Below, piece after piece: positions 2,560 to 26,231 of a stretch of DNA of 64,000 nt. This stretch comes from Blasia pusilla. Its lineage: Eukaryota. The stretch spans positions 36,704,001-36,768,000 of the forward strand of contig CM114271.1 of the NCBI GenBank assembly GCA_050084515.1. Direction: 5' to 3'. The notes beneath the pieces were generated by a model. It was not told where the DNA came from. It was given only the letters and a program-made list of their open reading frames with translations, and ran no database searches. Made by a program: the position numbers and the translations under genes. Position 1 is the stretch's first letter, and each line of letters opens with the position of its first letter.

Positions 2560-5434
2560 TTAGGGCCATAGGTGATGCACTAGGTTGTACCGTAGGAGGA
2601 GGAAGATGAAGGTGTATTTCCTTCGTGATAAGGCAATTGCTTTTGGAAAATTTAAAGTATGGCACAAGCTGGTTGAGAATGAGATAGGAAAGAAGCTTCG
2701 CACCAATTGAGAAGGAGAATTCTTGTAAAAAGAATTTAACAAATATATGGGGGAGCATGGAATCAAGCGACAGTCACCACGAAAAATACACCACATCAAA
2801 ATGGAATTGTTGAGCGTCAAAACCGTATAGTGGTGGAGATGGCAAGATGTATGATGAAAGCAAAAGGTTTGAAAAAAGGATTTTTGGCTGAAGCTATTGA
2901 TACTACCGTTTACATTCTAAATAGAAGTGCTACCAAGTCAATGCAAGGCATGACTCCTCAACGAGCATACTTAGATAAGGTACCATCAGTCCAACACTTC
3001 AAGACTTTTGGTAGCGAGTGCTAGTACATATTTGTGATGCATCAAAGACCAAGCTTGAGTCCAAGAGCAGGAAGTGCATCTTTTTGGCATACATTGATGA
3101 GTCTAAAGCTTATGATGTCATGAGGCAAAGAAGATATTTGTGAGTCAAAGTTTGGTCTTCCAAGAATAGCCTTGTCAAGTGGTGGATATCAGTGGTCTGT
3201 CTACATTATCCTCAAACGAAGACATAATCCATTAAAGCACATCATCAATGTTTACACAGGCTTACCAAGAAGAAGAATTTGGTGATGATTACAAAAAGAA
3301 GCCTGCTCTTCCATTACGATTTTCATACTCTAAGTGAATAAAGCAGCTTTTGGATGGTAGGGATCTACTAGTAATTGATGAAGTAACTCCATATTCACGG
3401 AGATCCATGATAGGATCCAAGATACTAGAGGACTAGAATATAGCACAACTTATCAATATGACCTTGGCGACAGAGGCCTTGGAGATAGAAGAGATATTAT
3501 GCTTCGATAAGGCCCTTGCTTATCCTCAATGGAAAGAAGCCATACAGATGGAGATGGACACCATTCAAAGAAATCAAACTTGGACTTTGGTTGAGAAACC
3601 AAAGGACAGTAAGATTACATGCATATTTGATTACTATGAGACTTTTTCTTCTACTGCAAGCATGACAACCATTCGCATTGTTCTAGTGATGGCGGGAACA
3701 AGGCGTTGGCTTGTATACCAATACAATGTGGAGTCTGAAGGAGGATGTTTATGTATCTCAACCATGAGGTTTTGAGCTACCTGGATCACAAGAGAAAGTG
3801 TATTTGCCTCATCAAGCATTGTATGGGTTGAAACAAGCCCCCAAGTATGATATCAACGAATAGTTACATTCTTTTGAGAGAGAGGTCTCATCAAGAGTCC
3901 TTAAGAAGAAAATTTGTATGTGTTTTGCGAAGATGGGATGTATATGTTGATAGTCCTTTATGTGGATGATCATATCATCGGAGGAGACCACAATAAGAAA
4001 ATAGAGGAAATGAAGGAAGTGTTGAAATCTGAATTTGAAACGTCAGATTTAGACAAAATTTTCGAACGTATATTGAATCAGCCAAGTCAAGATGATTCCC
4101 GAATTAAAATGCCAGATCTACCCGCGACGGTAGCCTTTTGCATTACTTCTTAGGCTTGGAAATTTGGCAACAATTAGATTCTATTTTTCTCTCTCAACAA
4201 AAATATGCTAGAGAAATCTTGAAGGCATTTTGGATGACGGAGTGTAAGGAAGTGGTCTCGCGAATGGAGATAGAGTTCAAACTCTCAATCCAGGATATTT
4301 GACCATTGGTAGATGAAAAGTTTAGGGTAATTTGAAATTTTTTTCTAACACAAGATCAGACATTAGCTTCGCTGTAGGAGTGTTGAGTAGGTTCTCAACT
4401 AAGCCTTGTGAGAATCATTGGAAGGCAGGGATGGGTGTGTTGAAGTATATCAAAGGCACTATCGAGTACCGCATCATCTACGGAGCAGGGATGAAAATGG
4501 GAGTCTTTTGTGACTCGGATTGGGCAAGTGACTCAAATTCTGAGAGGTCTCTTTGGGTTATTGTTTCTTGATAGGATCAGGTGTGGTTTCATGGGTCAGA
4601 AAGAAGAAACCTAAAGTGGATCTTTCTTCTACTGAGGCAAAATACAAGGTGGTCTGTTATGCTTCTTAATTATGAAGAAGTATGATTGAGATGGATATTG
4701 GAGGATATAGGAGAAGCACCATAAAGTGCTATTTTAATATGGTGTGACAATCAGAGTTGCATTGCCATAGCACATAATCCTATGTTTCATGCTTGTACAA
4801 AGTACAAAGAGATTCAATGTCATTTTTTTTGTGAGTTGATTAAGAGAGAGGTTTTAAAGTTAGTCGATTGTCCAACAAAGGATAATCGTGCCAACATCTT
4901 CACCAAAGCTTTGAGCGAATATCAGCTTCAACAACATCAGATGTTGTCTTGGCATCAATCTAAGATAGTAGTTCACATGAGAGTGGATATTGAGGGGGAG
5001 TGTTGGATTCCCAACATCCACTTCTCTCAATACTATTAATCTGATCGTCCCCTTATATAATGGTAAGCCTAGATTTATGGTTTCGACTTAGACGATGAAG
5101 GAGTCATAGTAATATGACGTAGATGGTTTGTGGAGTAGCATTACTAGGATTATCTAACCCTATATTTCATTATTGTGCGGGGTACCTTGATGCATTGCGG
5201 GGATCTCTGATTTTTTTTTATAAATAGAAATAAAGAAAAATAGGTAAAAAAAACCCTAGTTTTCGAAGTAGTTGAATAGTTCTGAGCCGTAGCGGATGTC
5301 AAGTTATCTCCATGTTCAAGTTCCATCAAAGCTCTTCTGTGAGCATATGGACGTACTAGGCACTCTAGGCCACTTTGTATCTCCAAGTTTTGTAACACAT
5401 TTTAGTGATTTCCTCGCATTTTTATTTTCTCGCA
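2560..5434 (+). mobile_element. Decayed 5'-truncated Ty1/copia element (integrase-RT-RNase H, PPT, 3' LTR); same family as 14505-19444
   Basis: Fragments [23 protein letters not shown] and RANIFTKAL with many stops and frameshifts. PPT GAGGGGGAG at 4992-5000 is followed by TGTTGG. Confidence 0.95.
5001..5434 (+). repeat. 3' LTR of copia family 1 (diverged copy)
   Basis: Starts TGTTGGATT right after the PPT, ends TCGCA, and aligns by eye to the reverse complement of 14505-14901. Confidence 0.9.
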
Positions 5435-7300: not shown

Positions 7301-9170
7301 TTTAAGTTGAGAATTCAATGCAAGGACAATCTAGATGAAGTAATTTCACTCTTTATAGACTTCATTAAGGATACTAGATGCGCTATCTATAGTAATCCAA
7401 ATCTACAACTCCAATTGGCTCTCATTGAGTCCCTTCTTCGTAAATTCACATAGTATTGTTGACATCATAATGTTAAGGCATTTCTCATTTTGCTTTCTAG
7501 ACTTTCAGAATTTTGACTTTATGGGTTTGGCCCCACCACTTATGACATTGTGAGGACTGAATGCAATAATATATTTTTCTTCACGTGTTGCTTATTGCTA
7601 ATTATGTTAAACCATTGGTCTGCTTGTCAGCATGCCCACAATTATATCTGATTACAAATCACATGCACTTCCACAACTTAGATGATGAGGTTCCAAAATG
7701 CATTTTTTGACGGTCTCCTTTATTTTGTTTCCCTTCATACCATTTTAGAATACGCTTCATGAATTGGAATGCCTAGTTTCAAATTTCAACTTCTTCACCT
7801 CACTATTCATGTTGTGGTATCATTTTAGAATAGGCACCTTGTTAGCTTTGTACACATACCTACAATCCTTTCTAGTTGTAAGAACTTTTAACCCTAATAC
7901 AATTCTATCTACTCATATATTCACTTTCTGCACAATCAAACTAGACCTCAAGTTAGGCAATCTTCCACAACTATAATTCACACATTTAAGGTTCTCGTCT
8001 CCTCCAACATAGCCTACAAATAACATCCAACACACAATACCAAATGAAGCACACTGGATTCATCACTCAACATAACTCATTCCACAATACCAAATTTCCA
8101 TTTTGCATTCCTCGCACACATTCAATAAAGGTTAACGTAAATTTTAGCTAAGGCCAAATTTTGTATAATTCAAACCCATTTAACACTCTTTATGTCACAT
8201 AGACCTCATATCAAACTTTTGCGCTTTTTACTGTAATCCGCCACTTCACTATTTTTCGGCCAGACTTTCGACTACTTTCGTTTAGGTCCTTCCGCTTTCA
8301 AACTGTGTAATGGCCGCACACTTTCAGTTTCCTTCGCACGGAATTCACTCATATTTCTATGGACTGACCACTTGTCATTTCTCTGCGGTCGTAGGCCAGG
8401 CCAGACCGACCGATCGATCGATCGCGCGCGCTAGAAGCATGGGACGGGAACAGTAGTACGGTAGGGCGTAGGAATGACACGTAGGAAGACGCCGCGAAGC
8501 GTGGTACGGGAGAGCGGACGCAGGACACGTGTATACGACGTCACGACTCGTACTGAATTGTGTTCAGGAAAGACAGACAGCGTCACATGTGTAGTACCGA
8601 ATGTTTTCCCTCGTACGCTTTGGAAGGGAATGTTAGGGAGGTACACCTCTTATTACATGTACCAGTGTAATGGAATGCATGTCTGATGGGCGTCTTTCAC
8701 ATCCGCCTCCATGTGTCACTAGGGCAGAGGCCAAGCATAATTTACCCACTACCACCGCATCGCGGGCAGCGCCGTCCGATTCGGATGTTGGAGCATACTC
8801 TTTTCGCATTCATTCCCGTTTCATCTCAGATATTCATACATACGATATATCCATCTGGATATGGATCCATTAATATTTGTATTGTCACCCTGGCATCTAT
8901 ACTATCAACCGGGGTTACTAAAATGGGAAAAGAAAAGTGAAGTGAGGAATCTATAAGAAGTGAAGCTTATGAGGGTGTTGATTTTTTTTGTGGTTTCCAA
9001 TATGCTTTGCAATATTCGATCTCGGCTTTTTTTTATCAAAATCAAATTTCGCACTTTGATCTAATCGTGCCTTGGTTGGCATATATGTCACATAAGTATT
9101 GGAGGCTCTGGACATACATAGAAAGTACCTGGAGACATTCAAATTTTTGAATGGAGATAAGTATTTGCTG

Positions 9171-9429
9171 AGAGGCGCACAAAGTAGGAAGGAGCCGGGA
9201 GGAAGATCCCAGCAAGAAGCGGGGAGAACGATCTGAACATCGAGTGTCTGAATCTGCACCCGGTCAATTTGCTTCCGTTTTGAAATTTCACCCTTTCTTC
9301 TCCAAAGAGGCGCGCAAAGTAGGAAGGAGCCGGGAGGAAGATTCCAGCAAGAAGCGGGGAGAACGATCTGAGCATCGAGTGTCTGAATCTGCACCCGGTC
9401 AATTTGCTTCCGTTTTGAAATTTCACCCT
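9171..9429. repeat. Tandem duplication, 135-bp period, 2 copies
   Basis: AGAGGCGC(A/G)CAAAGTAGGAAGGAGCC...TTTCACCCT starts at 9171 and 9306 with few mismatches. Confidence 0.95.
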
Positions 9430-9454
9430 ATCAAATTTCCCCTCCAATCTGCAA

Positions 9455-9530
9455 CACGTCCGCTTCAAATCACGTCTGCTTCAAATCTGCTGCACGTCTG
9501 TTTCAAATATGCAACACGTCCGCTTCAAAT
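9455..9530. repeat. Four short direct repeats CACGTCYGYTTCAAAT
   Basis: The motif is seen four times with variable spacers. Confidence 0.85.
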
Positions 9531-10194
9531 CTGAATCTGCTCTAGCATTCATCATAGTATTGATAGTATTGTGATCACGGTAAGAAGGATTTGGTCCCCC
9601 CCACCTCTCTCTTTCTCTCTCTGCATTTTGTCGCCTCGCAATGGTTCAAGTCCACTTTAACAGCCTCGACTCACCACGAGATTCAAATCGTTAGCATCAA
9701 TCGGCTACTTGAGTGCCTCAAATTCCTCAAACGTCTTTGAAAGTGTCTATTACTTGCTTTCCGCTCGGTGTGGAAAATGATCCAGTTGAGCTCCACCTAC
9801 GTTTCCAATTCGGGATTTAGCTTGAATGCCTCGACAAGGGCGTGCGCGCCCTTCTTGCCCACTGTGTTTCAAGTACTCTCTCGGAGGATGGCCGCTCTAT
9901 AGCACGATGGGCATTCTCATTTATAAACTTTTTCGGAAGCCCAGGAGCTTCGCTATCAGATCTCTCTCTTCGACAATAGGAGATTCCTGCAGCTCTTCTG
10001 TCACCTCGAGCTCCATTTCTGCTTTTGGAACCGACATTGGGAATTTTTCAACTCCACACAAATTTCTTCCTCAATTAGTCGTTGTGATCCCTATCACAAC
10101 TCGAATCATTCACAATCATTACTCGAATTGCAACTTGATCGGCTCCCATCCTTGGAGCCATTTTCCTTGTGGATCTACATGAACACAGTTGATC

Positions 10195-10341
10195 AGTAAG
10201 TTCACATGTGTTTGTGAGCAGATAAGTGTCCGTGTTCCAACGTTGGAGATGAAATTGGACCGCCAAATAGTAAGTTCACCTATTTTTTTGAGCAAATAAG
10301 TGTCCCTATCCTTGCGTTGGAGATGAAATTGGGCCGCCAAA
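10195..10341. repeat. Diverged tandem duplication, ~73-bp period
   Basis: AGTAAGTTCAC...ATAAGTGTCC...CGTTGGAGATGAAATTGG(A/G)CCGCCAAA occurs twice. Confidence 0.85.
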
Positions 10342-11620
10342 CCTATAAAGATTTCATTAGTACTACTCGCAGCGTCCATCATTTTGCAGAGTAGCGGTGG
10401 GTCCGATCAATCAATCACTAAACAAGTGGGGCGGAGATTGCACGACACTCTGTTTTCTCCCTCACTCCCGAGTCTCGACTACCGAACCCACACACTCGGG
10501 TGAAATCAGATGGTTACTTTTCTTTTTAGCCTTTGAAGACACAGAGAGAGAGAGAGATTGGTTCAATTTATTCTTCGGGATGGCGATGGTGATGGCGACA
10601 CTCTAGGTGCACTCCAGGTTCATGCTATGAAACAGGTGATGGATCCAAATTCGGTTTGATAATTCATGCCATGTCTTTAACAACTGACTGGTGGGGATTT
10701 AAGTCCCTTTTAATGCATTAAACTAAATCAGTGCACGGTGGACACAAAGGTACTCGAGAATTCTCTTTCTCTCTTTCTCAGGCTGATTCTGACACTACAA
10801 TGATGGAACCGAAACTCGGTGGTACTCCAAGAAATTGTGATCCTAAATAATCGAGGAGCCGCTACCGGACACCTCCCCCACTGGGGTAGGTGGCCGGGAG
10901 CCATTCTGGGCGGCTACAGGTTCTACCCTAGCTGAGTGGTGTGGAGATGGGATGCGTTGGGCCGGTTCTTGCAATTTTCTCTATGCTCGGGCCTGCATGA
11001 GGCTTTCGTGCGCACCCCTATGATTTTGCGTGAGGAGTGGAGGAAAGAAGCGGCAACAACATGACAAGTCTTGTCATGCCTACGGGTTCTCACTTCCACA
11101 CAAATGCCCCATCACATGCGAAAAAGTTAGGGGTTTTTTAATTGCGTCCCTCGGAAAACTTATTAAATTTTGTGGAAGAACCATAGGGCATAATTTATTA
11201 CATCAAACTCTTATAAGAACAATATGGTATTTTTTATTAATCTTCTTTCCACAAAAGATGTTAAGATAAAATAGGTTTTTACATGTCACTTCTATATATA
11301 ATTAATTATTTTTTTACAAAAATTAGCTTCCCTAGCTAAAGAAATCAATTTTTTGGAAAAGTTTTAGAGGGAAGAAACGAACATCTAGCAAACGTCGTAC
11401 AATGTTTGAGATGTCCAAGGACATGGCATTTAGGTTGCTTGGCAGCGAGCAAGGAGGAAGGTTTTCCACCTGGCAGAGAATCATGGCGTCATGTTGCACA
11501 TAATGAGATCAGATGGATGATCTATTGCCGTGATCATCCAATTGTCCCCACACAAGGCACTGCAGATTATCAACATATCTCTTGGGTGTAATTAATGAAT
11601 ACGATAGAGAAATTTTTTAG

Positions 11621-11898
11621 GTAAGCACAATGGGACTATAGTCTTATTACATACTTCACGTGTAAGATTTTGCACAAATTACCTTGATGTTTTCAAGAGT
11701 TTTGCATCTTCAGACTCAAAAGCATCTGCACTCATATTGAATGGACGTTTTGGTTGGGTTGTAATGAATTAAATGGATTAAGTCTTGAAGTTGGAATGAG
11801 GATAGTTATTTGATGTTATGTATGGCTATCAATTGTTGTAGAAGCATAACAAACCTTAATTTGTGACCTCTTTTGTTTATTGTTGTGGTTCATGACAG
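11621..11898 (+). other. Probable 5' intron of the transposase transcript
   Basis: Donor AG|GTAAGC at 11621; T-rich tract and acceptor CATGACAG at 11898, 48 nt upstream of the ATG at 11947. Confidence 0.5.
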
Positions 11899-14490
11899 GT
11901 TGAACTACATATATGACAGTTTGAATGCATGTGACACCTTGTACAAATGGCAAACCCTAGTTCCAACTCAGTGAGACTAGTAGAAAAGAACGCGGAAGGG
12001 AAGGATGATGTACCAATTTATGTGTTGTCCTTCAAAGAAGGACAAACACTGGCCGACTTTCGCACTCGATGTGCTAGGGCAATTGACTTTGAATTTGATT
12101 TTTGGGATGATAGGCTACCAGGTAGAGTTAGACATCCTATTGAGAACCTCATTGAGATTAGTGAACTTGAAGGGAGTGTTTTTGTGATTGCACAATAAGC
12201 CTCTGGATGTATTGGGAGGGTTGCAATTGTGTCCTCGCATTCATCTGCTGCTACTGTGTCTATCATAGAGGACACAAATGTTGGGTCTCAATCACATACA
12301 GAAACCACAACCCAACAACAAGTAGTCAATACATTGCCACATCACGGGTTCATTTGAGTCGTGCTTATGTCTGAGGTGGCAGCAAAGAGTTGGAATGAGG
12401 AGTGGAGCAAGCTTAAAGATTGGGTAAAGCGACAAGGATATGATGAGCATAAGTGGAGAGTGCGAACGTGGGGTGAGGGGCAAGATGTCCGAGGGCACCT
12501 AGAGTGCTTAGAGTGTCGGGAGACTTATGGGAATGCAGCTAATTCCCAAGTTTTAAAATCAATTGCAAATTGCTTCAGCAATTTCCAAGACTAATCATCT
12601 CAACAACCCTAAGCATAAGGACAATTTTTGTAAGAGACGGGGTCTGCCTAGTACATTGATTTCTCCTAGTGACATTATACAACAACCTCAATGGGATCAT
12701 GAACATCAGATCACCGTAGGTTTAGGAATAGTTGAGAAAATGAATGTAGAGGTTGGGGGTGAGACAATAGTGTTCTCTGTGATGCCATCTGTTGCTAATA
12801 CGTAGTTTGCACACAAGTCACACATGTTCAAGGTACCATGTATAATCTGTGGCAAGTTGCACACACACATGTGCCCAAGAAAGGCAAATTTGGAGCATAA
12901 TCTACGACAACACTTGGTTAGTCGTGATCACTTGGATGCTCTTGACACTAGAGAGGTCACTGCCCAACTTGTCTTGAGGTTTGGGAAGAAGGGAAGACCA
13001 AAGAAGCCAGATCCTAGGGACTTATTTCCATCTCAAAATTCCATTACCAAATTCTTTAACCCTGATGCCTTCAAGGAAGGAAGCAGTTCAGGAAAAGGTG
13101 GGTTTGCTTCCTCCATTGATTTTGGACTAAGTTTGCTTTGTTGGGGCTTCTGGGAGTCAAACGTCCAATGGAGAGGAGAGTTGATGGATGAGAAGGCCAT
13201 ACTAGATGATCAGACAGGAGGAACTATTTGGGATTGTGAGCTTATCACTTCAGCGCAAGTGTTCAACCCAAGTAAGTAGGTCAATTGTATGTATACAAGG
13301 TTGTTTTAGGCATAAGCTTTGCTCTAGATTGTCAAGTAATGGGGAAGGGTTTGAGAACCTCACTTGTAGTCATTGTGACTCCATTAAGCGGGAGGATGAT
13401 TTTCGTGGTCGAGTGCAGAGGGAAGCGGAAGCTTTAGTGCATAGAGGAGGCAGGACAACTCAAAGAGGGATGGCCATGAAGTACTTGACCAAGACAGAGT
13501 TGAGGGAGCATATGGGAAAATTTAACACTCAATTTAGGAGATAACATTGGCTTTTGGCACAACAATCACAAAGAATTTGTGCCTTGAGTATTAGGCGAAA
13601 GAATCTAGAAGACATGTTAGGAGTAGCTACAGATAGGAAAGATTTGAGACTATTTCTTAGGAACGTAGTAAATGGACATAGGGATGGGGCATTTGGTGGT
13701 AAGGAGGAGTTGTGGGATTTCCTGAAAGATGTGGCTAAGAATTTTCAGAGAGTGGCCAATGGTTATCGTTACAGTAAGAGAACCACAGCTTTTTCCCAAG
13801 CCATGTTCCAATTTGGTGGTCGACAAGTTGCCCACCGCTTTCAGGAAAACTTGGGAGGGCCAGGTATGAAGACCTTGAAACTACCACCCTTTAGAGCTGG
13901 GCTACAAAAAGAGATATTTCAAGAGGTCTCCCGAGTACTATTTGCATCAAAACAACTACTTGGAATTGAGGGAGATGTGCCTCTAATGTTCGTTGAGGAT
14001 GAAACAAGGATAAAAGAAAGGCCAAGGTGTGTTTGAATCTTTGGAGAAAGTTGGCCTTGATATATGTATGGGTATGCTCTAACATAATGATTATATTACT
14101 TTGCACATTTATATGTCATGTTCATTTTTTTCTATTGGGCTTATGTTCTAACTTGATACTTCTGTTGTGATAGATGGGAGGCTAAATATGACACGCTTAT
14201 CGGTTTTTTTGGTCCCTTGGAAGAACATACATGCTCTTTTGGCTTGGAAGTACTTTCTGGGGAAGGCAATGAAGGGTATGATAAAATTGTGAGTACTTTT
14301 GAGAAATATGCGAAAGGTATGTATACTAGAGTAGTAATTGTGAATCCTTTGCATGAGAAAATGCCACAATTGGCGCTCTGTGCCACCCCAACTTGTAATC
14401 GATTCGAAGCAGATTGGGTGAGGAGACATTGGGTGCAGCTGAAATCCATGTGGGATGAATATTGCAGAGCCAGTGTTGGTCCTTTATTGG

Positions 14491-14503
14491 GGCTCTGATA
14501 CCA
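14491..14503 (-). other. Extra tRNA-iMet PBS copy outside the 3' LTR
   Basis: Minus strand reads TGGTATCAGAGCC, one base after the 3' LTR end. Confidence 0.9.
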
Positions 14504-14504
14504 T

Positions 14505-14901
14505 TGTGATAAAACAGAAAGTGACAAAATCACTAAAATCTTTACAAAACTTAGAGATACAAAGTGGCCTAGTGCGTCCGTGCGCTCACAGAAGAGCTTC
14601 GATGGAACCTGAATTGGGAGATAACTCGACATACGAGAATACGCTACCGCTGCGGCTCCCGACTATTTGACTTCTCGGGAAAACTAGGGTTTTTATCTAT
14701 TTTTCTTTGTTTCTATTAATAGAAATGAAGAAAATATATAGGGTTAGATAAACCTAATAACGCTACTCCGTTAACCACCTACGTCATATTACTATGACTC
14801 CTTCGACGTCTAAGTCGGAACCATCGATCCAGGCTTCTCCTCATAAAAGGGGGCCGATCAGATCAATAGTGCTCAGAGAAGTGGATGTTGAGAATCCAAC
14901 A
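14505..14901 (-). repeat. 3' LTR (397 bp)
   Basis: TGTGATA...CCAACA on the plus strand; adjacent to the PPT. Confidence 0.95.
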
Positions 14902-14930
14902 CCCCCCCTCAATATCCACTCTCATGTGGA

Positions 14931-17900
14931 CTACTGTCTTGGACCTATGCCAAGACCCTTCAAATGTCGGTGAAGCTGATCTCCGCTCAAGGCTTTCGTG
15001 AAGATGTCTGCACGGTTATCCTCTGTTGGATAGTAGACTAATTTCAAAACCTCTCTAGATCAATTCACGAAAAAAGTGGTACTGGATCTCTATGTGCTTC
15101 GTATGAGCATGAAACACAGGATTATGTGCTATGGAAATGAAACTCTGATTGTCACAACACATTACAGTAGCACTTTCTGGTGCTTCTCCTATGTCCTCCA
15201 ATATCCATCTCAACCATACTGCTTCACAAGAAGCATAACAAGCCGTCTTGTACTCTACCTCGGTAGAAGAAAGGGCCACTGTAGGTTGCTTCTTGCTGAC
15301 CCATGACACCACACCTGATCCTACCAAGAAGCAATAACCAAACCGATCTTGAGAATCAATCTCCGCCCAATCCGAGTCACAAAAACCTGTCATTTCCGTC
15401 CTTGCTCCATAGGTGATGCCGTACTTGATAGTGCCTTTGATGTACTTCAACACACGCATCCCTGCCTTCCAATGGTTCTCACAAGGCTTAGTTGAGAACC
15501 TACTCAACACTCCCACAGCGAAGCTAATGTCTGGTCTACTGTTACACAAAAATATCAAATTGCCTACAAGCTTTCTGTACAACTTTTCATCTACCAATGG
15601 TGAAACATCCTCCATCGAGAGTTCCAACTCTACCTCCATTGGCGAGACCACTACCTTACACTCGGTCATCCCGAATGCCTTCAAGATTTCTCTAGCATAC
15701 TTCTGCTGAGAGAGAAAAATAGAATCTGACTGTTGCTAAATTTCCAATCCTATAAAATAGTGCAAAAGACCTAAATCTGACATTTCAAACTAAGATTTTA
15801 ACACTCCCTTCATTTTCTCTATTTTCTTAATGTGGTCTCCTGTGATGATCAGATCATCCACATACAATACTATCAACATATACATCCCATCTTCGCAAAA
15901 CACATACAAATTTGCTTCTGAAGGACTCTTGATGAGACCCTTCTCTCGAAAGAATGAATCTGTTCGTCGATACCATATCCTTGGGGCTTGCTTCAACCCA
16001 TACAATGCTCGATGAAGTAAACAAACTTTCTCTTCTGATCCGGGTGTCTCAAAACCTGGTGGTTGAGAAACATATACCTCCTCCTTGAGACTCCCGTTCA
16101 GAAAATCAGACTTCACATCGTATTGGTATACAGGCCAACGTCTTGTTCTTGCAACCGCTAGAACAATTCGAATGGCTGTCATCCTTGCAGTGGGGGCAAA
16201 AGTCTCATAGTAGTCAAAACCTTCGATTTGTGAGCATCCTTGTGCGACCAACCTCGCTTTGAATTTATCCAATGTACCGTCCGACTTGTACTTGGTCTTG
16301 TACACCCACTTGGTGCCTATTATCTTCATGTCCTTTGGCTTTTCAACCAAAGTCCAAGTTTCATTTCTCTGAATAGCGTCCATCTCCATCTGCATGGCCT
16401 CTCTCCATTGAGGATGAGCCAGGGCCTCATCCAAGCATGATGGCTCTTCCACCTTCAAGACCTTTGTCATCAGAGCCATGTTGACGAGATGTGCGGAAGC
16501 TCTATTCTGCTCCTCAAGTCTCTTGGATCTCCTTGGATGTGTAAGAACTTCATCAGTTGCTGGTGGATCCTTACCATCCAAGAGCTGCTCTATCCACTTA
16601 GGGTATGACGACCGTAGTGGAAGAGCAGGTTGCTCTTTGTAATCATCACCAAATTCTTCTTCTTGATGATCTGGTGTAAACATTTGTGGTGTGCTCTGGT
16701 GGATTATCTCTTCGTTTGATGATAATGTGGACGGACCACTGATATCCACCACTTGACGAGGCTGTTCCTGGAACACCACATCATGACTCACAAGCATCTT
16801 CTTTTCCTCAGGACACCAAAGGCGATAAGCTTTAGACTCATCACTGTATCCCATAAAGATGCACTTCATGCTCTTGGACTCCAGCTTGGTCTTGGATGCT
16901 TCAGGAATATGTAAAAAACACTCACCACCAAAAGTCCTGAAATGTTGGACTGATGGTATCTTACTTGAGTATGATTGATGAGGAGTCATGCCTTGCACTG
17001 TATTAGTAGCACTTCTATTTAGAATGTATACTGGCAAAGATAACAACTTCACCCAAAATCCTTTCATCAAACCTTTTGCTTTCATCATACATCTTGCCAT
17101 CTCCACCATCATGCACGGTTTTGACGCTCAACAACTCCATTTTTTGTGGTGTATGTGCCGTGGTTAACTGTCGCTTGATTCCATGCTCTCCCAAATATTT
17201 GTTGAATTCTGTTGATAAGAATTCTCCTCCTCGATCGGTGCGAAGCTTTTGTACCTTCTTTCCTGTCTCATTCTCAACCAGCTTGTGCCATACTTTAAAT
17301 TTTCCCAAAGCACTTGCCTTATCACGAAGGAAATACACCCACATCTTCCTACTATAATCGTCGGCAACTAAAAAGAAGTAGGAAGAACCACCTAATGCCA
17401 CTGTTCTCATTTTACCACAAAGGTCAGCATGTATCAACTCTAGAGGAGCCTTTGCCCTATTGTTGGACTCATTTGGAAATGGTTGTCGGTGTTGCTTGCC
17501 CATCATACAAGCTTCACAAGTATCCGACATGCCAGAAATTGTTGGTAAATCAGCAACCATGCCAGATTTCTGCATCTGACTTAGTAAAGGAAAGCTTAGG
17601 TGACCAAATCTTTCATGCCACAACTTACTGCTACTAAGATCTGTACCTACACTTGTCGTGAAAGCATACAACTCGTAGATATTTCCACGTCGTATACCTT
17701 CACCCACTACTTTCCCATTGGCATCCTCAATGATCGCTCCGATTTTCTTGAAACGAACTTCTAGGTCACGATCACATATCGCCATCGAAATCAAATTTCG
17801 CTTCAACTCTGGTACGTACAGTACATCAGTTAACTTCTTTTCATCTCCTTTTTGTGAGACTAAAGAAATTTTGCCTTTCCCTTGTACAGGGCATTTTGCA

Positions 17901-18941
17901 TTATTCCCAACAAGAATAACGATGGGCTCAGAGAGGTCATGAAGAGCTATACCAATCCTTATGATTGGTCATATGCCTTGATGCTCCACTATTGAGCACC
18001 CATGCATCTTCACTCTTTGTCTTAGTGGAATGTTCTGCCTGTGTGCAAAACTCTTCTATTGCTACCCAAGCATCTACTTCATGTTCTCCCAATTCTACAA
18101 AATTTCCAGACTCCTTCTTAGGTCTTAAACAACCGTTCTTCTCATCCTGACTCCTCTTTCTACAATCTTTCATAAGATGACCTAGCTTACCACAATAAAA
18201 GCATTTGAAGGTTTTTCTTGGAAATTTCTTCTTGACATTTGAACTGTAATCCTGATTTCTACCTCTCTGTACGTTGGCAGTAAATGCTGCATCACTTCCC
18301 TCTCTTGCTTTGAAGCGCATTTCCTCTTCTACCAACATTGCACTAAATTGTTCAAAAGCAAGAGGCGTGGGTCTTACTTGAGTATTTAGTGTAGTGACCA
18401 AACTGTCATACCTTGGAGGCAAAATCCTTATGCACCGACGTGCCAAATCTTCGCTAGATTTTGAAATTCCTACGGACGCCATCTGATCTTGAAGATTCTT
18501 GATCCTTGTCAAAAATTGCTCCGCACTTTCTCCTTTTGAAAATTTCTCGGACGTAAGCTGATTCTCCAGATTCTGAATCCGAGTCTCATTCCTCGTTTCA
18601 TACTGATTCTTCAAAATGTTCCATGCCTCAGCAGTAGTGGTTGTATGTTGAATGAGAGTCATGACAGAATCAGTTACATTCGTGACAATCGCATATAGAG
18701 CATCAGCGTTTCTGCGTCTCCATGCCAACAATACAACAGGATCGATATCCCCAGATGAAGATGAACATGCAAAACTCAAACTAGCTTGTGGATTTGAATC
18801 GACCCCTATGGCCGTTTCCCATATCTCAAATGATTCGAGAACAGTTCTGATTTTGAACTTCCACAACGTATAGTTAGACCCATCTAACTTCCCTTCACCC
18901 AGCGGAGGAGGGCGGGCACGAACTGACGAAGAAGTAGCCAT
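14931..18941 (-). pseudogene. Copia gag-pol polyprotein, disabled
   Basis: Gag LDGSNYTLWK, zinc knuckle CFYCGKLGHLMKDC, protease WVLNSGAS (catalytic D read as N), integrase WHERFGH and [19 protein letters not shown] and LYVDD, RNase H FCDSDW and TKHIEI. Broken by stops and frameshifts. Confidence 0.95.
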
Positions 18942-19001
18942 CTCTCAAGATTTTGTGCAAACACACTAGATTTCCAAATACAAAATACTGGAAAACCCAC
19001 T

Positions 19002-19013
19002 GCTCTGATACCA
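19002..19013 (-). promoter_or_regulatory. Primer-binding site, tRNA-iMet
   Basis: Minus strand reads TGGTATCAGAGC immediately after the 5' LTR. Confidence 0.97.
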
Positions 19014-19444
19014 TGTGATAAAACACAAAGTGACGAAATCACTGAAATCTTTACAAAACTTAGAGATCCAAAGTGGCCTAGTCCGTCCGTGCGCTCACAG
19101 AAGAGCTTTGATGGAACCTGAACTGGGAGATAACTCGACATACGAGAATACACTACCGTTGCGGCTCCCGACTATTTGACTACTCGGGAAAACTAAGGTT
19201 TTTACCTATTTTTCTTCGTTTCTATTAATAGAAATTTTTTGCCGATATTGCATCAGGGTGCCCCGCACCCTGATGCAATATAGGGTTAGATAAACCTAAT
19301 AACGCTACTCCGTAAACCACCTACGTCATATTACTATGACTCCTTCGACATCTAAGTCGGAACCATCGATCCAGGCTTTCTCCTCATAAAAGGGGGCCGA
19401 TCAGATCAATAGTGCTCAGAGGAGTGGATGTTGAGAATCCAACA
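19014..19444 (-). repeat. 5' LTR (431 bp)
   Basis: TGTGATA...CCAACA on the plus strand; adjacent to the PBS. Confidence 0.95.
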
Positions 19445-22400
19445 CCTAGTGATGGTGATGCTCGTCGTAGGAAATTAATGATGGAAGATTATACTGGTAT
19501 GAATGGTTCTTTTCGAAGGTATAAAGTAGGTTGGGAAGGGTGGCAATATTCTATGTCCATTCTTCCAAATGGAGACTTGTATGGATTTGGAGACCAAGAT
19601 CCACCCCACAATGGGAAAAAGGCTATTAACCCATTGGACCGATGTGCTGCCATGCTAGTGCTTGGTGACCAACATGCATCGTTGTCCTATGTGACGTCAA
19701 TTTATAACCATTGTAAAATTGAGGAGCATGGCTTGAATTGGGATGATGTAAATAGGACCGACAGAGAGAATTGGGCTGGCCCACAACGGATAGCATCTAG
19801 GAGAGTCCAAGCCTGCCTACACCACATGTTTGAGCGGCAAGATGTTCGACATGATAGAAGTTTTGGGACTAAGTTGTACCTTGAGATTTGTGCAGATTAC
19901 ATCGATATTTTCTTCTCTGTGAAGCATGACTTGAGGACTCGTATAGTATTGACATCTAAGGTATCTTGGTTTCTCCGTTTGTTGAGGCTATGGTTGAGGC
20001 ACGGTGACCATTCTATGACAGGGAATACAGGATGTGTCACAGAAAAAAATATGATCTCTATTCAAGCTTTCCATGATATCAACATGTCTTGCCATTTCAT
20101 TTTACTCTTAGTTTGTGCATTTTGAGACAATTTTCCATATCTTCAAGTTCCATTTCACTTGCTAGGATCTGATTGTTGTGAGATTTTTTTCAACAAGGTA
20201 GGTGGCATGAGTGGTTATGAAAGAAACTGTGACTTTGGATCTTTATTAGATAGTGCAGTAGGAGTGAATCGACTGGCTGGCCTAGAGTATGGACCAGAAG
20301 GATTAAAGATACGTCGTTCATATCATAAGCAAGATCATATTTGGGCAAAACTGCACCCCCTTGGTGAAGGAGACCAGGATCCGAATCTATTTGATTATTC
20401 ATTGGTTGGGAATAATGAGTTGGTTGTTGATGCTCTTAAAGAAGGGTTGGATGCAGCAAAAGAGCTTTTGAGGTTGTTGAACATGTCTCCAAGGAGTTCC
20501 TTGCCAATTGCAAAGAAAAGGTGGTGGATTCATCCATGGGATGTGGAGGCCGAGACATGGCCTCATTCAACTTCAATAAGGGAAGTAGTGTCATGTGATG
20601 ATGTTGAAGAACATGAAGATAACCGATCCACAATAGTGTCTCCAATATATGAGCAGCCAACTGGGGAGTCTTTAGAGTTTGAGGACCCTGAGGAAGATTT
20701 GAACCATATTGATTCTTGGGTTGTAGAGGAAAGTTGTGATATCAATGTAGCTTTCATAATAGATAACGAATAGATAGATATTGACATTGATCCGAAATCC
20801 ATTGAAATGGAGGTATTAGGACATGAAGTAAGGCATGTGTTTGCATCTGTTCAAGCAGAACTGACTAATGTGGCAATTCCCCATGCAATAGTGCCTACTG
20901 TAACTTATGAGGGCAAGATTATCTATAAATCCATCCTTGTAAGTTAATTGTCTTGCAATCCTTTCATGTCAAAGGATAGACTAACTCGAATAGCCCAAAA
21001 GACTTATTACACTATTGGTAAGGGAAAGGAACGTGATCCTAATTGCCCAACTTGTTTGGTTGATGTTGGTAGTGATATTGCAGTTTTGTTTGAATCTACA
21101 GCAAATGTTGGCCCTTCCACAAGATCAACAAAGTCAAAGAAAAGGAAGGGAAAAGAGACACAACTTGCAGTGGAGGCAGAAGTTGCAAAAAAAGAGTATT
21201 GGTTGGGGCGTATTGTATTTATGATTCAAAAGAATGGTTCACATTGGTCAAGACGTCGTACGGCCTTGGACTTGTTAAATAGGCTTGTACCTCCTCTTGG
21301 ACAAAAGGGAAGCGTTTGTCGTATTATGTGTAAGTCTTTCGGCCATGGTAACACCAAAACCTTGTTCAGTTATGATGCAATAGATGTGCAATGGATTGAT
21401 ATTGAAATGGTGATCTCCAATGTGAATTTGACAATGAAATCAGGGATACTAGATAGAATATATACACTTTATTCAGTTGACTTACATGCTTTGACTACAT
21501 ATATTCACAGTGTGAGTTGATCTTGGTGAGTTTTTTTTATGTTTGAGATATGTTAAATTAAATATTTTTATGGAGTGTGCTTAGAGTGTACTTGACACTC
21601 TTGAATTGTGAGTAGGATAATGGGAGGGAGTAGGCTAGGGGGATGACAGATTGGCTGATTGAGCCTCTTGCTCAATTAGGGGTTCAATTCCCCTCTGTCA
21701 TGGTGTAAGGATAACATGTTGGATGTTAACTTAACTTGGTACTTTTCTTTTCTTTGAAGGTCTTATTTATTTCAAGTTATTGCTTTACTTAAAGAATTTG
21801 AGGGGTACCAAAAATGAAAATTGATTCCTTTAAAATACATAACGGTGAGAAAGAATTATTTTTTCACTTATGAGTTAGAGGGTCTAGACCCTAAAACGTC
21901 GCAGGTGATGTAGAGCCCTCCATATAGTGACCCCCCCCCCCCGAGATGCCTACGTGCGGGCACTCTCGCATCCGCGCTCGAAGACGGATGGATCCGGATT
22001 CCGAAATCGTAGTTGCGTAGTGGAACTAGGAAGATCTTCGTGGAAGAGAATACTAGCGCCATGGGAAAAAATGCAAGTCGACCAAATTAATTATATTTCA
22101 CTGGCTGTCAAACTGGGATCGCTGGCAAGACCGGGTTGGCCAGTTGCGATGTGTCAAGTCTGCCTGTTTGCCTCGCCAAGAGGTTTTAGTGATAGAACTT
22201 GGTTATTTAAGCTCTCACTATTGGGCGTTGCCTTCGGATACGCGACGCGAAGAGGCATTTAAAAACTGTTTGAGGACATCGGCGCTCCAATCACTTATGC
22301 GTAAGTATTAGTAGTGTGTACTTGGCATGGCTAACGGTTAGTTCTACCACCCCCTCCTCTTCCCTATGTCTCCCGTACATATACATTATTCCATCCTGCG

Positions 22401-22534
22401 CTATAGTTTACACGGCATTGCATCAAACCCGATCGGTTCAAGTCTATCCAAGGTCATCGGAAATTGCTCGGATCTGTCCGAGGTCATACTCTACAGTAAG
22501 GGCAATCGAGTCTAGATTGTTGGATTTGGTCGAC

Positions 22535-22966
22535 ATGTTATAGATGTTGTAATTATGATGGGAAAAAATATTGGAGCTCGAGTGTTTATTCCACACATCT
22601 GATTCAGGGTTACCTTTTGATTTACGAAGATTCAATTTCCTCTTTGGCCAGCCTTTGCTATGACAATTCATAAGCTTGAAGGTCAAGCGTTAGATAGAGT
22701 TAGTATTTACTTGCCAAAATCCTGTATTGTCTCACGGAAAATTGGATGTTGTCTTATCTAGTGTAGGTTCTAGCAAGTCAATTCATATGATGATTGATAA
22801 TCAAAATCCACCAAACGAAGATGATGTTTGCACTAGAAATATTGTATATTATGAAATGTTACATTAATAAAATAATAGTAAGGATTTTCATCTTTTCATT
22901 TTCTTATGCAATATTCTTTATCATTATAAAATTTGACATCGGTGCATCGCACACAATTCTTACTAG
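22535..22966 (+). mobile_element. Helitron 3' fragment (PIF1-type helicase C-terminus plus 3' terminus)
   Basis: Decayed VFIP..LPFDLRR..QFPLWPAFAMTIHKLEGQALDRVSIYLP; terminal hairpin GTGC-ATC-GCAC followed by CTAG|T at 22963-22967. Confidence 0.85.
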
Positions 22967-23399
22967 TGTGTCATAAAATAGAATAGTAATAATTTTTATT
23001 ATATGCCTCACTATTCCTTTGAGAAAGAGAAATAAAAATTGTTAGAAAGGTAATGAAATTATTTAAGATTAGAGAGTGGAGAAATAAAGTATATATTAAA
23101 AGTACTACTTAGTTTGGCTATGCTTACCCTTGAAAGTGATTCTTTACAAATAATCATATTTTTCATTTCAAAATTAAAAAAAATTTCCCCGTTCTTAAAT
23201 CTTATGGGGAATAAGAGCATTCCAATCTTCAAAAAACCCCACTTCCCTAAATAATTCCACCCTTCCATTATTCCTCCCACCAAAACAATACACCTCAACT
23301 AAATTATGAGTTAATTTTAATTAATAAAATAATTTTCTCTTCCTTTAAACTCATTTTCCTTTCCAAAATATCAAGTGTGAATTAAAGGACAAGATTGGA

Positions 23400-26231
23400 A
23401 GCTTGTTATTATTCATCAGGGTCATCAAGGTTCAACACCTCACCAACATTCCAACGAATGGCCGCAGATAAATCTGGCTCTCGGCCATATGAAAGCAAGT
23501 ACGATGAGAAAGACGCTAAGGATGCCTGCCTGCTGAATCTGTATCCCATCACCAACCACGGCAACGAGAGGTCCCAATCTCCTAGGTGACGTTCCTGCAA
23601 GCCATACTTGCGTAGTCTTCTCTTCATCGTTTGCACAACCTGCTCTGCTTGTCCATCCGCCTCAAGATGATCTTGCGAAGTAGTGCGGTGGTCGATCAGT
23701 GATTGATCACACAAGGCCTAAAACTCCCCGAGGAGCTCTATACCCTGGTTTGTCAACACCTCAGCTGGTGCGCCGTAATGACTCAATACTCAATCTAGGA
23801 AGGTATACGCTACTCCCTCACTCGCTTTGTCAGGCAATGCAACCAACTCTATCCACTTCGAGAAGTGCTCGACCATCATCAACACATAACGACTATGGCG
23901 CTCCGTCAAAGGCAAAGGTCCTACAAAATCCAAACTCCATCTATAACCTAAACCCATGATCGTAAGTGGATGCAATTGTGGAGTTGGAGCATTGAACGAT
24001 GCTCAAACTCAATCACAAACCATGCCTCTGGCAACAAATTGTTGAATGTCAGTCTGCATGGCTCGCCACCAATACTGAATGTGGAGCAAGTTGTACGTCC
24101 GCTTCATTCCAAAATGACCCAACTCCTCGTGGGCATGATGCACTAAACGTGCTCTCTGCAAAAGATGAGGCACTATACGCACTCTACCATCCTCACACTC
24201 TCGTAACATATGTGTCCCCTCCCACCAGAATCGTCTGGCTCGCTGTAGGATCCGATCCCACTCTCTAGCAGCCACTGTGCTCGCGACACTGCCAGTACGC
24301 AGGTACTCCAAGACCACCCATCGTCCTGAATATCTCAATCACCTGTCGTCTCCTCACCGGCCTCTGAATCTAAGGACTCTCCATCAGACCATGCCATCGA
24401 AGTCTCAGCAATCTGGCTCTCCATTGCCAACAAGCCCAAATAGGCTAATGCATGTCATCCTCGTACCAACTCCTCATCACTCTCACTATGCCAACGAGCT
24501 CCAATCACATCTCTCTCACTCGGGCATGGGTTACGGTTCAAACCATCTGCATCCTGGTTGAACATCCCGGATCTATGCACCACTTGGAAGTCATACTCTT
24601 GCAACAAAAGAGCCCACCTTGCAAGCTTCACTGTAAGCTTGTTGGAATCCATCAACCACTTAAGTGACAGGTGATAAGTAATGATGGTAAAGGGATTGCC
24701 GAATAGACAACATCTGAAATAGAAACCCCAGACTATAGCCAAGCACTCACCCTCATACGAGCTATACTTTGCCTCTACAACGTTGTTTGAGCAACTACTG
24801 TAAGCCACCACGAACTCTCTACCATCATCGTCATATTGGGTGAGCTCGGCTCCAAGCCCCAACATGCTCCAATCAGTATGCAATTGGAAAGGATGCCCCC
24901 TGATTGGTCTCCTGAATATGGGCGCGGAGGTCACTGTCCTTGAGCATCTGAAATACTCTCTCCTGCTCACCCCCCAATGCTACTCCTGATCCATCTTGGT
25001 CAGCAAGGTCAGTGGCTTCGCAATCAAGCTAAAACCCTTGACGTACCGTTGATAGAAGTTCGCCAATCCCATGAATGCACGAACTCGATTCACATCTGTA
25101 GGGCATGGAATGCATGAAATAGCCTCTACCTTTGTCTACTGCATACCAAGGCCACATGGGTATATCATATGACCCAAGTGCTCAATCTGGTCATAGAAGA
25201 ACTTGCACTTGCCTGGATGTAGCTTTAGCCCATGTAATTGCAATCGTCGAAACACCTCCTCTAGATGTCGCTCATGCTCCTCAATGCAACATATCAATGC
25301 GGATCCCTGGACCCTTTAGCGTACCCAAATCCTGCATGCTAAATGCAAAACAGCTCCTATAACTCCTGAGGAAATGATGTATCCGTTGCCGCTCTCCTCC
25401 TGTCATCTTAGGGCCCATATCTGGCTCCCAAGTCTCCATTGTGACAACGGTAGGACTCTCCGGCGTGGGTTTAGGTGGTTGCTATGGTGCAACCCCTTCT
25501 CGCACAACAAAACTTGATTGCTCCCCTACAGCCAACTGCAAAACCGGATCTCCATGTGTAGTACATGGAACCACGCTCCATGTTGTGGCTACCATCTCTT
25601 GGCGTACCTACAAAACATCCCAAGAAGTCCAAAGGTGTCTCTTCCGATCATCCTTGGTGTGTCGATCTCCTTGGGTCTCGTCCCCAGCTAGTGTCTCAAC
25701 CGTCTCGATAGGCATGGGGCTTACAAACGCAATTGCTGTGATCTATCGCATCCTCAAACGACATTGCTCAGTGACTCCTAAAAAATGGTACTGACCTAAA
25801 ATAGTAAGTTCCTGAATATGGCTCCAAATGAGCCGAAACGAAGGGGAAACTTGATCTCTCATGTTTCTCGGGGCCTCAACATGTTATCCTGGACCTCTTG
25901 AGCATGTCCTCCACTACTTGAGAAGGCGCTCTACTAGATCTCATTGATCTATCCTAAAAAAACATGACACCTTGCTCGGATAGCCCACACCTCGTTTGAG
26001 AAATGAACTGATGCCCATTTTTGTCGCCCGATTTATATCCCACGTCGGGCTCACTAGATCTTGCGCGGCAGACAAGTCCACATACGTTCAACGCACGCCT
26101 CCACGCGTCACATCCAATCTACATCGAACCCGCTAGAGGCCTGCACATAGCCCGCGCACGGGTCAAGATCCGTGATGGTGGCCTCTGCCTATCCCATATC
26201 ATAACAACCAATCATAGACCGCGATGTCACA
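23400..26231 (-). mobile_element. Internally deleted Ty3/gypsy element (RT-RH-IN remnants plus putative 5' LTR); possibly Phygy-like non-chromovirus
   Basis: RH FQLHTDWS, YSSYEGECLA and LARWALLLQEYDF; IN HEELGHFG, WSLDFVGP and DGQAEQVVQT. Block 25440-26231 is bounded by TGTGACA...TGTCACA with a TGG-starting PBS-like sequence on its internal side. Confidence 0.85.

Follow-up and report, generated by a model that had tools for sequence, protein, structure and literature searches.

A decayed, THAP-less transposon gene in Blasia pusilla, probably a remote relative of the P element

Does the genome of Blasia pusilla harbor a DNA transposon related to the P element? A 2022 review, in the portion available, counts six superfamilies with terminal inverted repeats (TIRs) in land plants and does not include P (PMC9033089). 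The question is raised by a locus within a stretch of 64,000 nucleotides (the window), where 12 stop-free pieces on the forward strand (11935-21520) make up one interrupted gene (11947-21520; 4,473 nt, about 1,490 codons). A sequence-only reading had joined "about ten" short ORFs here into a protein of some 1,500 amino acids. The joined reading and its length both hold, intact relatives being of similar length, though the pieces number 12. The parts are as follows.

11947-14026, forward strand: transposase coding part 1, from the start ATG at 11947 to the first catalytic Asp, as judged by ORF pieces and by tblastn with relatives P0193 and P0194
14027-14173, forward strand: putative GT-AG intron of 147 nt, containing stops; splicing it out restores collinearity with relatives
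14174-14496, forward strand: coding part 2, encoding the RNase H strands and helices that separate the two catalytic Asp residues
about 14497-19446, reverse strand: Ty1/copia LTR retrotransposon, recognized by its LTR pair and Pfam domains
19448-21520, forward strand: coding part 3, in a single frame, from the second catalytic Asp to the stop at 21518-21520
21521-21945, forward strand: 3' non-coding part of the repeat, with read depth at the level of the family, falling to the single-copy level within bin 21814-21982

The motifs named at the outset are all present along the forward strand and in the order claimed: EDETRI, W..DTLIGF, SDGD, QDPPHNGK, DRENW, and SDCCEIFF. Coding part 1 specifies a small N-terminal domain, two C2H2-like zinc modules, a Cys-cluster domain, and a helical coiled-coil and HTH-like region, and the first catalytic Asp follows at 13998-14000, within EDET. 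The intron had been placed to the nucleotide: GT stands at 14027-14028 and AG at 14172-14173, and its removal joins ...DETRIKERPR to WEAKYDTLIGF..., collinear without gaps with proteins from Riccia (P0003: DETRIKPRVRWESRRDTLIGF). Coding part 2 carries a zinc-type site, C-H-C-C, in which the window copy has Phe for the first Cys (GFFG). Coding part 3 runs from the second Asp (19451-19453, SDGD) and D-x-x-H (19598-19609, DPPH) through a helical insertion domain to the catalytic Glu (20180-20182, GSDCCE), an acidic linker, and a predicted BAH/Tudor-like barrel (about 21050-21505). The intact 1,513-aa protein P0193 aligns by tblastn to the window over its residues 169-1508, and P0194 is covered over residues 32-1489. 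The estimate of some 1,500 amino acids (about 1,490 codons) is therefore right.

The insertion that splits the gene had been called a copia element, and it is one. It lies on the reverse strand, with LTRs (about 14497/14505-14903 and 19006/19014-19446) that are 94-99% alike and with the Pfam domains gag, zf-CCHC, rve, and RVT_2. Positions 19003-19014 are presumably its primer binding site, of the tRNA-iMet type. The element entered two codons ahead of the second catalytic Asp, and the transposase reading picks up again at 19448. Its flanks show no clean target duplication of 5 bp.

It is too much to suppose that the joined reading arose by chance, because a 441-aa query drew, from 3,969 candidates, 10 proteins at E<=1e-3, the best of them 68% identical over 97% of the query (E 9.6e-201). 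Relatives are encoded by 77 loci among 459 pattern matches, two with intact ORFs of 1,513 and 1,492 aa; P0193, P0194, and P0205 of Calypogeia fissa are intact relatives of about 1,500 aa. A profile search of 1.84 billion sequences returned 3,905 cluster representatives at E<=1e-3, 2,180 at <=1e-10, and 613 at <=1e-30. Those relatives whose hosts are named come from liverworts (Riccia, Calypogeia) and a fern, in keeping with the plant-type host supposed earlier, and the family also extends to some animals and many environmental sequences. Neighbors in the ESM Atlas carry TNP-like families (scores 0.87-0.94), which may serve as a lead.

The predicted fold can be compared with solved structures. 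An AlphaFold model of the relative P0005 (pLDDT 83.4, pTM 0.84) has only two Foldseek matches at E<=0.001, both to P element transposase (1.9e-8, 4.1e-8); the next match is RAG1, at 8.8e-3. VIA superimposes model residues 1-470 on residues 168-569 of the Drosophila P element transposase (6p5a_A) with Z 24.8 and rmsd 3.4 A over 374 aligned residues, and ranks Transib (Z 11.8), RAG1 (10.4), and Hermes (8.1) below it. When 48,161 chains were aligned without Foldseek, 6p5a_A again came first, the second chain reached Z 9.2, and only five attained Z>=8. The superposition extends from the HTH end across the RNase H core, the helical insertion domain included, at about 13% sequence identity to the solved P structure. 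The insertion (model residues 238-415, all helical, between D190 and E432) occupies the place of P's GTP-binding domain, and ahead of the core HTH-like helices come after a long helix, in the manner of P's zipper and HTH. In this N-terminal part, modeled residues 610-682 match 6p5a_A weakly (Z 5.2). The comparison by AlphaFold and Foldseek that had been recommended thus gives a DDE RNase H fold with P transposase on top by a wide margin, and it bears out the supposition of a divergent P-related enzyme much longer than that of Drosophila. The model makes P transposase the closest fold only among solved structures, a set outside of which lie Kolobok, Dada, and MuDR.

As for the hAT superfamily, Hermes reaches Z 7.5-8.1 at an rmsd of about 8 A, far under P's 24.8, and no hAT dimerization domain is among the matches listed in the Pfam scans.

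The catalytic residues hardly vary across the family. Counted in 62 members (P0005 numbering), the DDE triad is conserved at D71 (55 of 56), D190 (61 of 61), and E432 (62 of 62), and the D-x-x-H at D237 (60 of 61) and H240 (61 of 61). All of these residues are retained in the window copy. The C-H-C-C set after the first Asp is conserved as well: C92 in 55/57, H98 in 54/57, C100 in 55/57, and C154 in 57/60.

I propose that what stands here is a defunct copy of an autonomous DNA transposon of the cut-and-paste kind (class II), whose single protein of about 1,500 aa is remotely homologous to P element transposase (the "TNP-like" kind of P and THAP9). This I regard as probable. The core of the family, as the model shows it, is P-transposase-like: an HTH end and an RNase H-like domain with D-D-E and D-x-x-H, split by a large all-helical insertion, the features shared with P/THAP9 (PF12017, PF21787, PF21788, PF21789). 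The interval from the second D to E is also similar, 242 residues against 228 in P. The first and second D, however, are 119 residues apart (giving D-119-D-242-E) where P has 73, and it is here that the C-H-C-C site is inserted. P transposase has 751 aa, about half the length of the family protein, which has a long C-terminal extension with the predicted BAH/Tudor-like barrel. In P itself, according to the sections at hand of PMC7776569, the triad is D230, D303, and E531, the GTP-binding domain falls between beta5 and alpha4, THAP is confined to animals, and insertion duplicates 8 bp.

In place of THAP, the N-terminus of the family has the two C2H2-like zinc modules and the Cys-cluster domain. 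The sequence-only reading had the protein "without THAP", and no Pfam match to THAP appears in any N-terminus scanned: P0193 and P0194 have none at E<=10, and neither have 13 further homologues. Fold searches with a model of the N-terminus gave nothing above Z 5.6. Having no THAP, one more zinc-type site within its RNase H domain, and double P's length, the family is probably a distinct deep branch, within P or beside it, and not an ordinary P element. Its hosts, unlike those known for P/THAP9, include liverworts and ferns, and a P-like transposon lineage without THAP in land plants appears to be real.

At the other end, model residues 701-853 give middling matches to EBS and AIPP3 (Z 7.3 each), Rsc2 and the first BAH domain of DNMT1 (6.9 each), and ORC1 and MTA1 (6.5 each), and also to chromo-barrel and Tudor domains (Z 6.0-6.6). 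The C-terminus of the transposase therefore looks, in the model, like a BAH/Tudor-like barrel. The barrel has no Pfam match, and an Atlas search with it gave nothing. Other family members end in Tudor, SAP, or C1 domains.

How visible is the relationship to sequence profiles? In a scan of 45 members, for which 25 of the 37 matched families are listed, PF12017 (the HTH of P transposase) matches three (best E 6.4e-5), PF21787 one (E 2.6e-4), and PF21788 one (E 0.13); 42 members go without a match to PF12017 and 44 without one to PF21787. P0054 scores 23.7 bits against the PF12017 cutoff of 23, at residues 135-188, just ahead of its core. None of 10 pieces of the window matches any transposase family at E<=1. 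P-related Pfam families are not among the matches listed for six homologues at E<=1, for seven at E<=0.1, and for two at E<=10, and a search of PDB sequences with a nine-sequence profile did not bring up P transposase at E<=10. By these measures HMMER-level similarity to P is almost absent, and the few weak Pfam matches, such as they are, point the same way as the fold.

Raw genomic reads from the host species (X9 and X10) speak to whether this is a repeat. Over 19448-21982 their depth is about 31-119 (mean about 64, orientations summed), and over 21983-22489 it is 0.24-1.7, a ratio of about 75-fold between the element and its single-copy flank. Of the reads that align along the whole stretch, most are less than 90% alike. 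The drop occurs near 21,920-21,950, and the 3' end of the repeat is likely to be the motif TATAGTG with its run of C (21923-21945). The depth and its fall therefore indicate a repeat and not the single-copy conserved host gene that the earlier reading had named as an alternative. A DDE RNase H fold, a best match outside the six superfamilies described from land plants, and repetition all agree with that reading. Neither TIRs nor a target duplication turned up in the window or at related loci, so that the argument for cut-and-paste mobility is one of protein and copy number.

It might be objected that P wins the comparison of structures for want of a nearer competitor. Kolobok is a P-related superfamily with a DDE transposase of the C/DxxH type, lacking a Pfam model or solved structure, and P could well be its best structural match too. 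Its RNase H domains, in the passages at hand of PMC5751038, have no Pfam similarity, like those of the window family, and its hosts are as varied: chlorophytes, rhodophytes, fungi, animals, and protists. Some Kolobok lineages, by the description in the relevant part of PMC9587614, have a zinc finger right after the first catalytic D, where the window family has its conserved C-H-C-C. But the stretch from C/DxxH to E holds a zinc finger in nearly all Kolobok, and the family's C/H columns there are only moderately kept (H280 in 49/62, C309 in 37/62, C402 in 51/62, H403 in 48/62). Kolobok transposases often carry THAP, which also counts against the idea. Then there is the matter of TTAA, which Kolobok duplicates. 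The right-hand flanks of three near-identical relatives (L008, L009, and L010) begin CGAG, GTGG, and CAGT, if the boundaries are true termini; and if the fall in depth at about 21,920-21,950 marks a terminus in the window, there is no TTAA at it, the nearest lying some 90 bp within the repeat and some 140 bp beyond it. Finally, the weak Pfam matches of the family are to P models. Membership in Kolobok is unlikely.

An alternative view is that the locus is a pseudogene of a domesticated, transposase-derived family of host genes, no longer mobile. The want of inverted repeats and target duplications would fit, as would C-termini with BAH-like, Tudor, or SAP domains of the sort typically seen in a host's chromatin proteins, and annotations treat the relatives in Riccia and Calypogeia as ordinary genes. 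It is difficult to reconcile this with the read depth and the divergence among reads, with at least six diverged paralogues in Riccia sorocarpa, with nine diverged loci in records sharing a name prefix, or with a window copy that is decayed and struck by copia while the triad persists in 55-62 of 56-62 members. I consider a host gene family very improbable.

The Dada superfamily (transposases of about 1,400 aa with DxxH and an N-terminal Cys cluster, no TIRs, and insertion into small-RNA genes, as described in the part available of PMC3706591) resembles the family in its length, motif, Cys cluster, and lack of evident TIRs, but scarcely deserves credence: there is no snRNA or tRNA gene target (Rfam, no matches at E<=1 in 9000-25000; ARAGORN, no genes in 8000-26000), the C-terminal CCHC finger is missing (past residue 431 column 804 alone is C/H-rich, with C in 23/46), Dada-U6_DR is spaced D-68-D-176-E, and the superfamily's Table 1 gives Chlorella as the sole green host, with no named relative of the family coming from a Dada host species.

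Returning to a P-related transposon, one may ask how intact copies would work. The N-terminal zinc modules and HTH would bind the element's ends in place of THAP, the long helix (P0193 residues 542-575) would dimerize the protein as does P's leucine zipper, and the DDE site would excise and reinsert the element. The C-terminal barrel, whose binding to histones is a prediction, may tether the enzyme to marked chromatin and so bias integration. Chromovirus integrases offer an analogy in mechanism, not homology: there too a DDE enzyme with a C-terminal barrel of the chromatin-reader type could steer integration (PMC9033089, in the section at hand), although they belong to another class of element and the family's barrel, itself predicted, resembles BAH, chromo-barrel, and Tudor domains at only Z 6-7.3. 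Going further, it is possible, though I put it forward tentatively, that the family is an undescribed, eukaryote-wide sister of P at the level of a superfamily, without THAP and perhaps without TIRs, that recognizes its ends with its own zinc modules, aims integration at marked chromatin with interchangeable C-terminal readers (BAH-like, Tudor, SAP), and has survived in bryophytes and ferns, groups for which P-type elements go unlisted.

The land-plant list would gain a superfamily from a P-like lineage that is present in some tens of copies in a plant genome and has kin among liverworts and in a fern. For all its size (3,905 cluster representatives), the family is all but invisible to Pfam, so it probably goes unclassified in many genome annotations. 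Sharing P's core but having another DNA-binding head and one more zinc-type site, it is a natural comparison for learning the essentials of P-type transposition; and if, as may be, a chromatin-reader-like domain has here been joined to a DNA transposase, targeted integration can be tested directly.

The copy in the window is itself inactivated by the copia insertion, by seven premature stops (12196, 12355, 12803, 13542, TGA at 20123, TAG at 20771, and TAA at 20945), and by two changes of frame (near 12588 and near 13231-13257). The stops and frame changes are damage that the sequence-only reading did not mention. At 20771, where the window copy has the T of a stop, reads have G in 22 of 22 cases in X9 and in 29 of 32 in X10.

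The proposal, made from sequence, that this transposase is related to that of the P element is borne out by the predicted fold of a relative. An AlphaFold2 model of the related protein P0005 (865 aa, 62-sequence alignment, pLDDT 83.4, pTM 0.84) reaches E<=0.001 in Foldseek with two matches only, both the Drosophila P element transposase (1.9e-8 and 4.1e-8); the runners-up are RAG1 (8.8e-3), Transib (6e-2) and Hermes (0.11). By VIA-align, residues 1-470 of the model fit residues 168-569 of the P transposase chain 6p5a_A over 374 residues, with a Z of 24.8 and an rmsd of 3.4 A, as against a Z of 11.8 for Transib, 10.4 for RAG1 and 8.1 for Hermes. The same order emerges from aligning the model directly with all 48,161 representative chains, Foldseek left aside: P transposase comes first, the second stands at Z 9.2, and only five attain Z>=8. 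The accessible text of PMC7776569 gives D230, D303 and E531 as the catalytic residues of P transposase, all within the matched range, which on its description would be expected to take in the last part of the HTH domain plus an RNase H domain divided by the GTP-binding insertion domain.

Weak sequence links appear to agree with a P-like fold. Among 45 diverse members scanned against Pfam at E<=10, PF12017 (the P transposase HTH) is found in three and is the commonest among the matches listed, while PF21787 (2.6e-4) and PF21788 (0.13) are each found in one. In the relative P0054 the PF12017 match, at 23.7 bits, just exceeds the cutoff of 23; it covers residues 135-188, right before the catalytic core. 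Those language-model neighbours of P0005 that carry any Pfam family are all TNP-like, which is a lead towards P kinship, not proof of it. Ten pieces from the window gave no transposase family match in Pfam at E<=1, and no P-related family appeared in homologues scanned at E<=1 (six), E<=0.1 (seven) or E<=10 (two), where the sole real matches were accessory C-terminal domains of single members: SAP, C1_2 and a PTM/DIR17-type Tudor. A nine-sequence profile found nothing relevant among PDB sequences at E<=10.

A candidate catalytic triad can be read from the 62-member alignment, in P0005 numbering D71 (55 of 56), D190 (61 of 61) and E432 (62 of 62), together with a D-x-x-H formed by D237 (60 of 61) and H240 (61 of 61). 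The window copy keeps the triad (13998, 19451 and 20180) and the D-x-x-H (19598-19609) in a gene now spread over 12 stop-free pieces of the + strand, 11935-21520, consecutive across three frames. Its features are these:

11947, + strand: start ATG of the transposase, in a single frame until about 12588
About 12588 and 13231-13257, + strand: frame changes, at which the reading shifts
14027 (GT) to 14173 (AG), + strand: putative intron of 147 nt, interrupting the reading
About 14497: reading broken by a copia element on the - strand, resuming at 19448 with SDGD
19448 to the stop codon at 21518-21520, + strand: last coding part, in one frame throughout
12196, 12355, 12803, 13542, 20123, 20771 and 20945, + strand: seven premature stops

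The sequence-only reading had called both the intron and a gene of about 1,500 aa, and both calls hold. The 147-nt stretch has the GT and AG borders of what would be a spliceosomal intron, and its excision, joining DETRIKERPR to WEAKYDTLIGF, restores collinearity with Riccia proteins in a gapless residue-for-residue match. By tblastn the relatives P0193 (residues 169-1508) and P0194 (residues 32-1489) align along the window, and the gene is therefore nearly complete, at the size estimated. At the stops at 20123 (TGA) and 20945 (TAA) the aligned relative has R and Q, and either stop would follow from an Arg or Gln codon by a single C-to-T substitution. At 20771 the window copy has T where the host species' raw reads have G, in 22 of 22 reads of run X9 and 29 of 32 of run X10, so this stop is private to the window copy. 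A short ORF (11340-11588, +), some 350 bp upstream of where the transposase begins, weakly resembles an NSD-type variant PHD finger (E 1.6e-5, under the Pfam cutoff) and may be part of the element or derive from a host gene. At 10195-10341, upstream of the element, a 73-nt unit stands twice in tandem, 84% alike.

P transposase is about half the length of the family protein. In keeping with the claim of a transposase without THAP, the Pfam scans of homologues gave no THAP match; unlike in P, the N-terminal 650 residues carry two C-x2-C...H...H modules and a beta-rich domain in which C485, C500 and C503 are invariant. A predicted long helix (542-575) followed by a helical region resembles the order of zipper and HTH in P. 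The model of the N-terminal 700 residues is of moderate quality (pLDDT 67.6, pTM 0.27), and fold searches with it found nothing above noise (maximum Z 5.6; 6p5a_A at Z 5.2 over 610-682). Also unlike P, a C-H-C-C set (C92 55 of 57, H98 54 of 57, C100 55 of 57, C154 57 of 60) stands between the first and second catalytic Asp, which are 119 residues apart in the family and 73 in P.

At the other end, an acidic linker is followed by about 150 C-terminal residues that form a barrel in the P0005 model. Its scores against BAH domains (Z 7.3 for EBS and AIPP3, 6.9 for Rsc2 and DNMT1, 6.5 for ORC1 and MTA1) and against chromo-barrel and Tudor domains (6.0-6.6) are mutually consistent and make a middling case for a likeness of the modelled barrel to this group; nothing usable came of an Atlas search with the C-terminal 224 residues. 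The BAH-like barrel is the C-terminus of plant-type members. In three other relatives that place is taken by a PTM/DIR17-type Tudor (P0019, 1066-1119), a SAP (P0044, 1288-1323) or a C1_2 domain (P0060, 1385-1434), and such differing accessory domains suggest C-terminal module swapping.

The serious rival to P kinship is membership in Kolobok, a related C/DxxH superfamily that, in the accessible text of PMC5751038 and PMC9587614, has neither a Pfam model nor a solved structure, and from which the family is set apart on the published description. Against Kolobok, no TTAA was seen at the boundaries that could be placed, the zinc finger after DxxH is not well conserved in the family, and the weak Pfam matches go to P models. 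Dada, compared through the accessible part of its published description (PMC3706591), is an improbable assignment: small-RNA genes are missing from the vicinity, the family has no C-terminal CCHC, and the catalytic spacing of Dada differs from the family's. We rate the family as a deep P-type branch with a zinc site and a reader domain and without THAP, and see a fair, though less than even, chance that it merits superfamily rank. A 2022 review, in its accessible text, names six TIR superfamilies of land plants, Tc1-Mariner, hAT, Sola, MuDR, PIF-Harbinger and CACTA (PMC9033089), and a literature search, with Repbase and Dfam outside its scope, found nothing on a P-type element of bryophytes or ferns or on the present family.

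Relatives are numerous. With the 441-aa stretch after copia as query, 3,969 candidates yielded 10 longer proteins, of which the best has 68% identity; in Riccia sorocarpa and R. fluitans, both liverworts, hypothetical proteins are 47-58% identical to it. A profile of nine relatives run against 1.84 billion representatives returned 3,905 at E<=1e-3 and 613 at E<=1e-30. Further searches named relatives in Calypogeia fissa (1,529 aa), in the fern Adiantum nelumboides (two proteins) and, outside plants, in the brittle star Amphiura filiformis and the hydrozoan Clytia hemisphaerica, besides three EukProt entries; cluster names were obtained for 4 of 20 clusters (Amphiura, Clytia, one EukProt entry and one 'hypothetical protein'). 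Metagenomes yielded 77 loci with relatives among 459 pattern matches, two of them (L001 and L003) with uninterrupted ORFs of 1,513 and 1,492 aa.

In raw whole-genome reads of the host species (at least 80% likeness, about 1 in 100 reads per run, both orientations summed), depth is about 31-119 in each bin of 19448-21813, with a mean of about 64, and about 43 in the bin 21814-21982, against 0.24-1.7 in the three bins that follow; measured by the adjacent single-copy DNA, this makes the family roughly 75-fold repeated. Reads are mostly less than 90% alike over the whole stretch mapped, including the far more abundant repeat from 23,414. This copy number and the decay count against a domesticated host gene, an unlikely reading.

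Read depth places the right end of the P-like repeat about 400 bp past the stop codon, near 21,920-21,950. TATAGTG with a C-run stands at this boundary (21923-21945) and at the right boundary of four metagenome loci whose proteins are about 40% identical to the window's: L007 (5634-5652), L008 (6411-6429), L009 (6262-6279) and L010 (5749-5767). It is possibly a conserved end sequence, but since none of the other 73 loci has the motif, the agreement may be fortuitous. L008, L009 and L010, which are near-identical, have a common sharp right end with three different flanks, and their target duplication is unreadable because the left boundary falls just before the ORF or within a simple ACACA-type repeat. 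No convincing pair of TIRs was found in the flanks of the window copy (exact-seed and blastn-short) or within L001, L013, L049 and L068, no partner to the reverse complement of the L009 right end in L007-L010, and no inverted pair to the 3' boundary motif across the window. Comparisons of L031 with L042 and of L049 with L068 gave no clean ends, and no target duplication was found in the window copy or the related loci examined. Because neither an inverted repeat partner nor a target duplication was found, we infer cut-and-paste mobility from the enzyme and the copy number. More than 10 kb surrounding decayed family members is common to L049 (2230-14114) and L068 (93-12138), with an identity of about 89-92%; 3.9 kb of it lies upstream of the gene, and a 1.2-kb segment of it is inverted. 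Either an element of far greater size or a segmental duplication could explain this.

The copia insertion reported inside the gene is evident from its LTR pair, 94-99% alike, and from Pfam gag, zf-CCHC, rve and RVT_2 domains that mark it as Ty1/copia on the - strand. Its flanks show no clean or matching 5-bp target duplication, and the 13 bases before its outer LTR end (14497-14510) equal the primer-binding-site bases beside the other LTR (19003-19016), where 19003-19014 is presumably a primer binding site of the tRNA-iMet type. This oddity may stem from later mutation or from two copia copies having recombined.

Beyond the P-like element, 23414 marks the abrupt start of a repeat of very high copy number, which continues through 24500 and beyond, at a depth of about 2,600-3,700 as against about 0.8 for single-copy DNA, with some 1,300 reads per run having an identical loose end at 23414. 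It holds an ORF (24455-24976, -) with an RT_RNaseH domain, and so is a Ty3/gypsy-type retroelement. Between the single-copy flank and this retroelement, 22490-22827 has a moderate depth of about 15-30 and is probably a fragment of another repeat.
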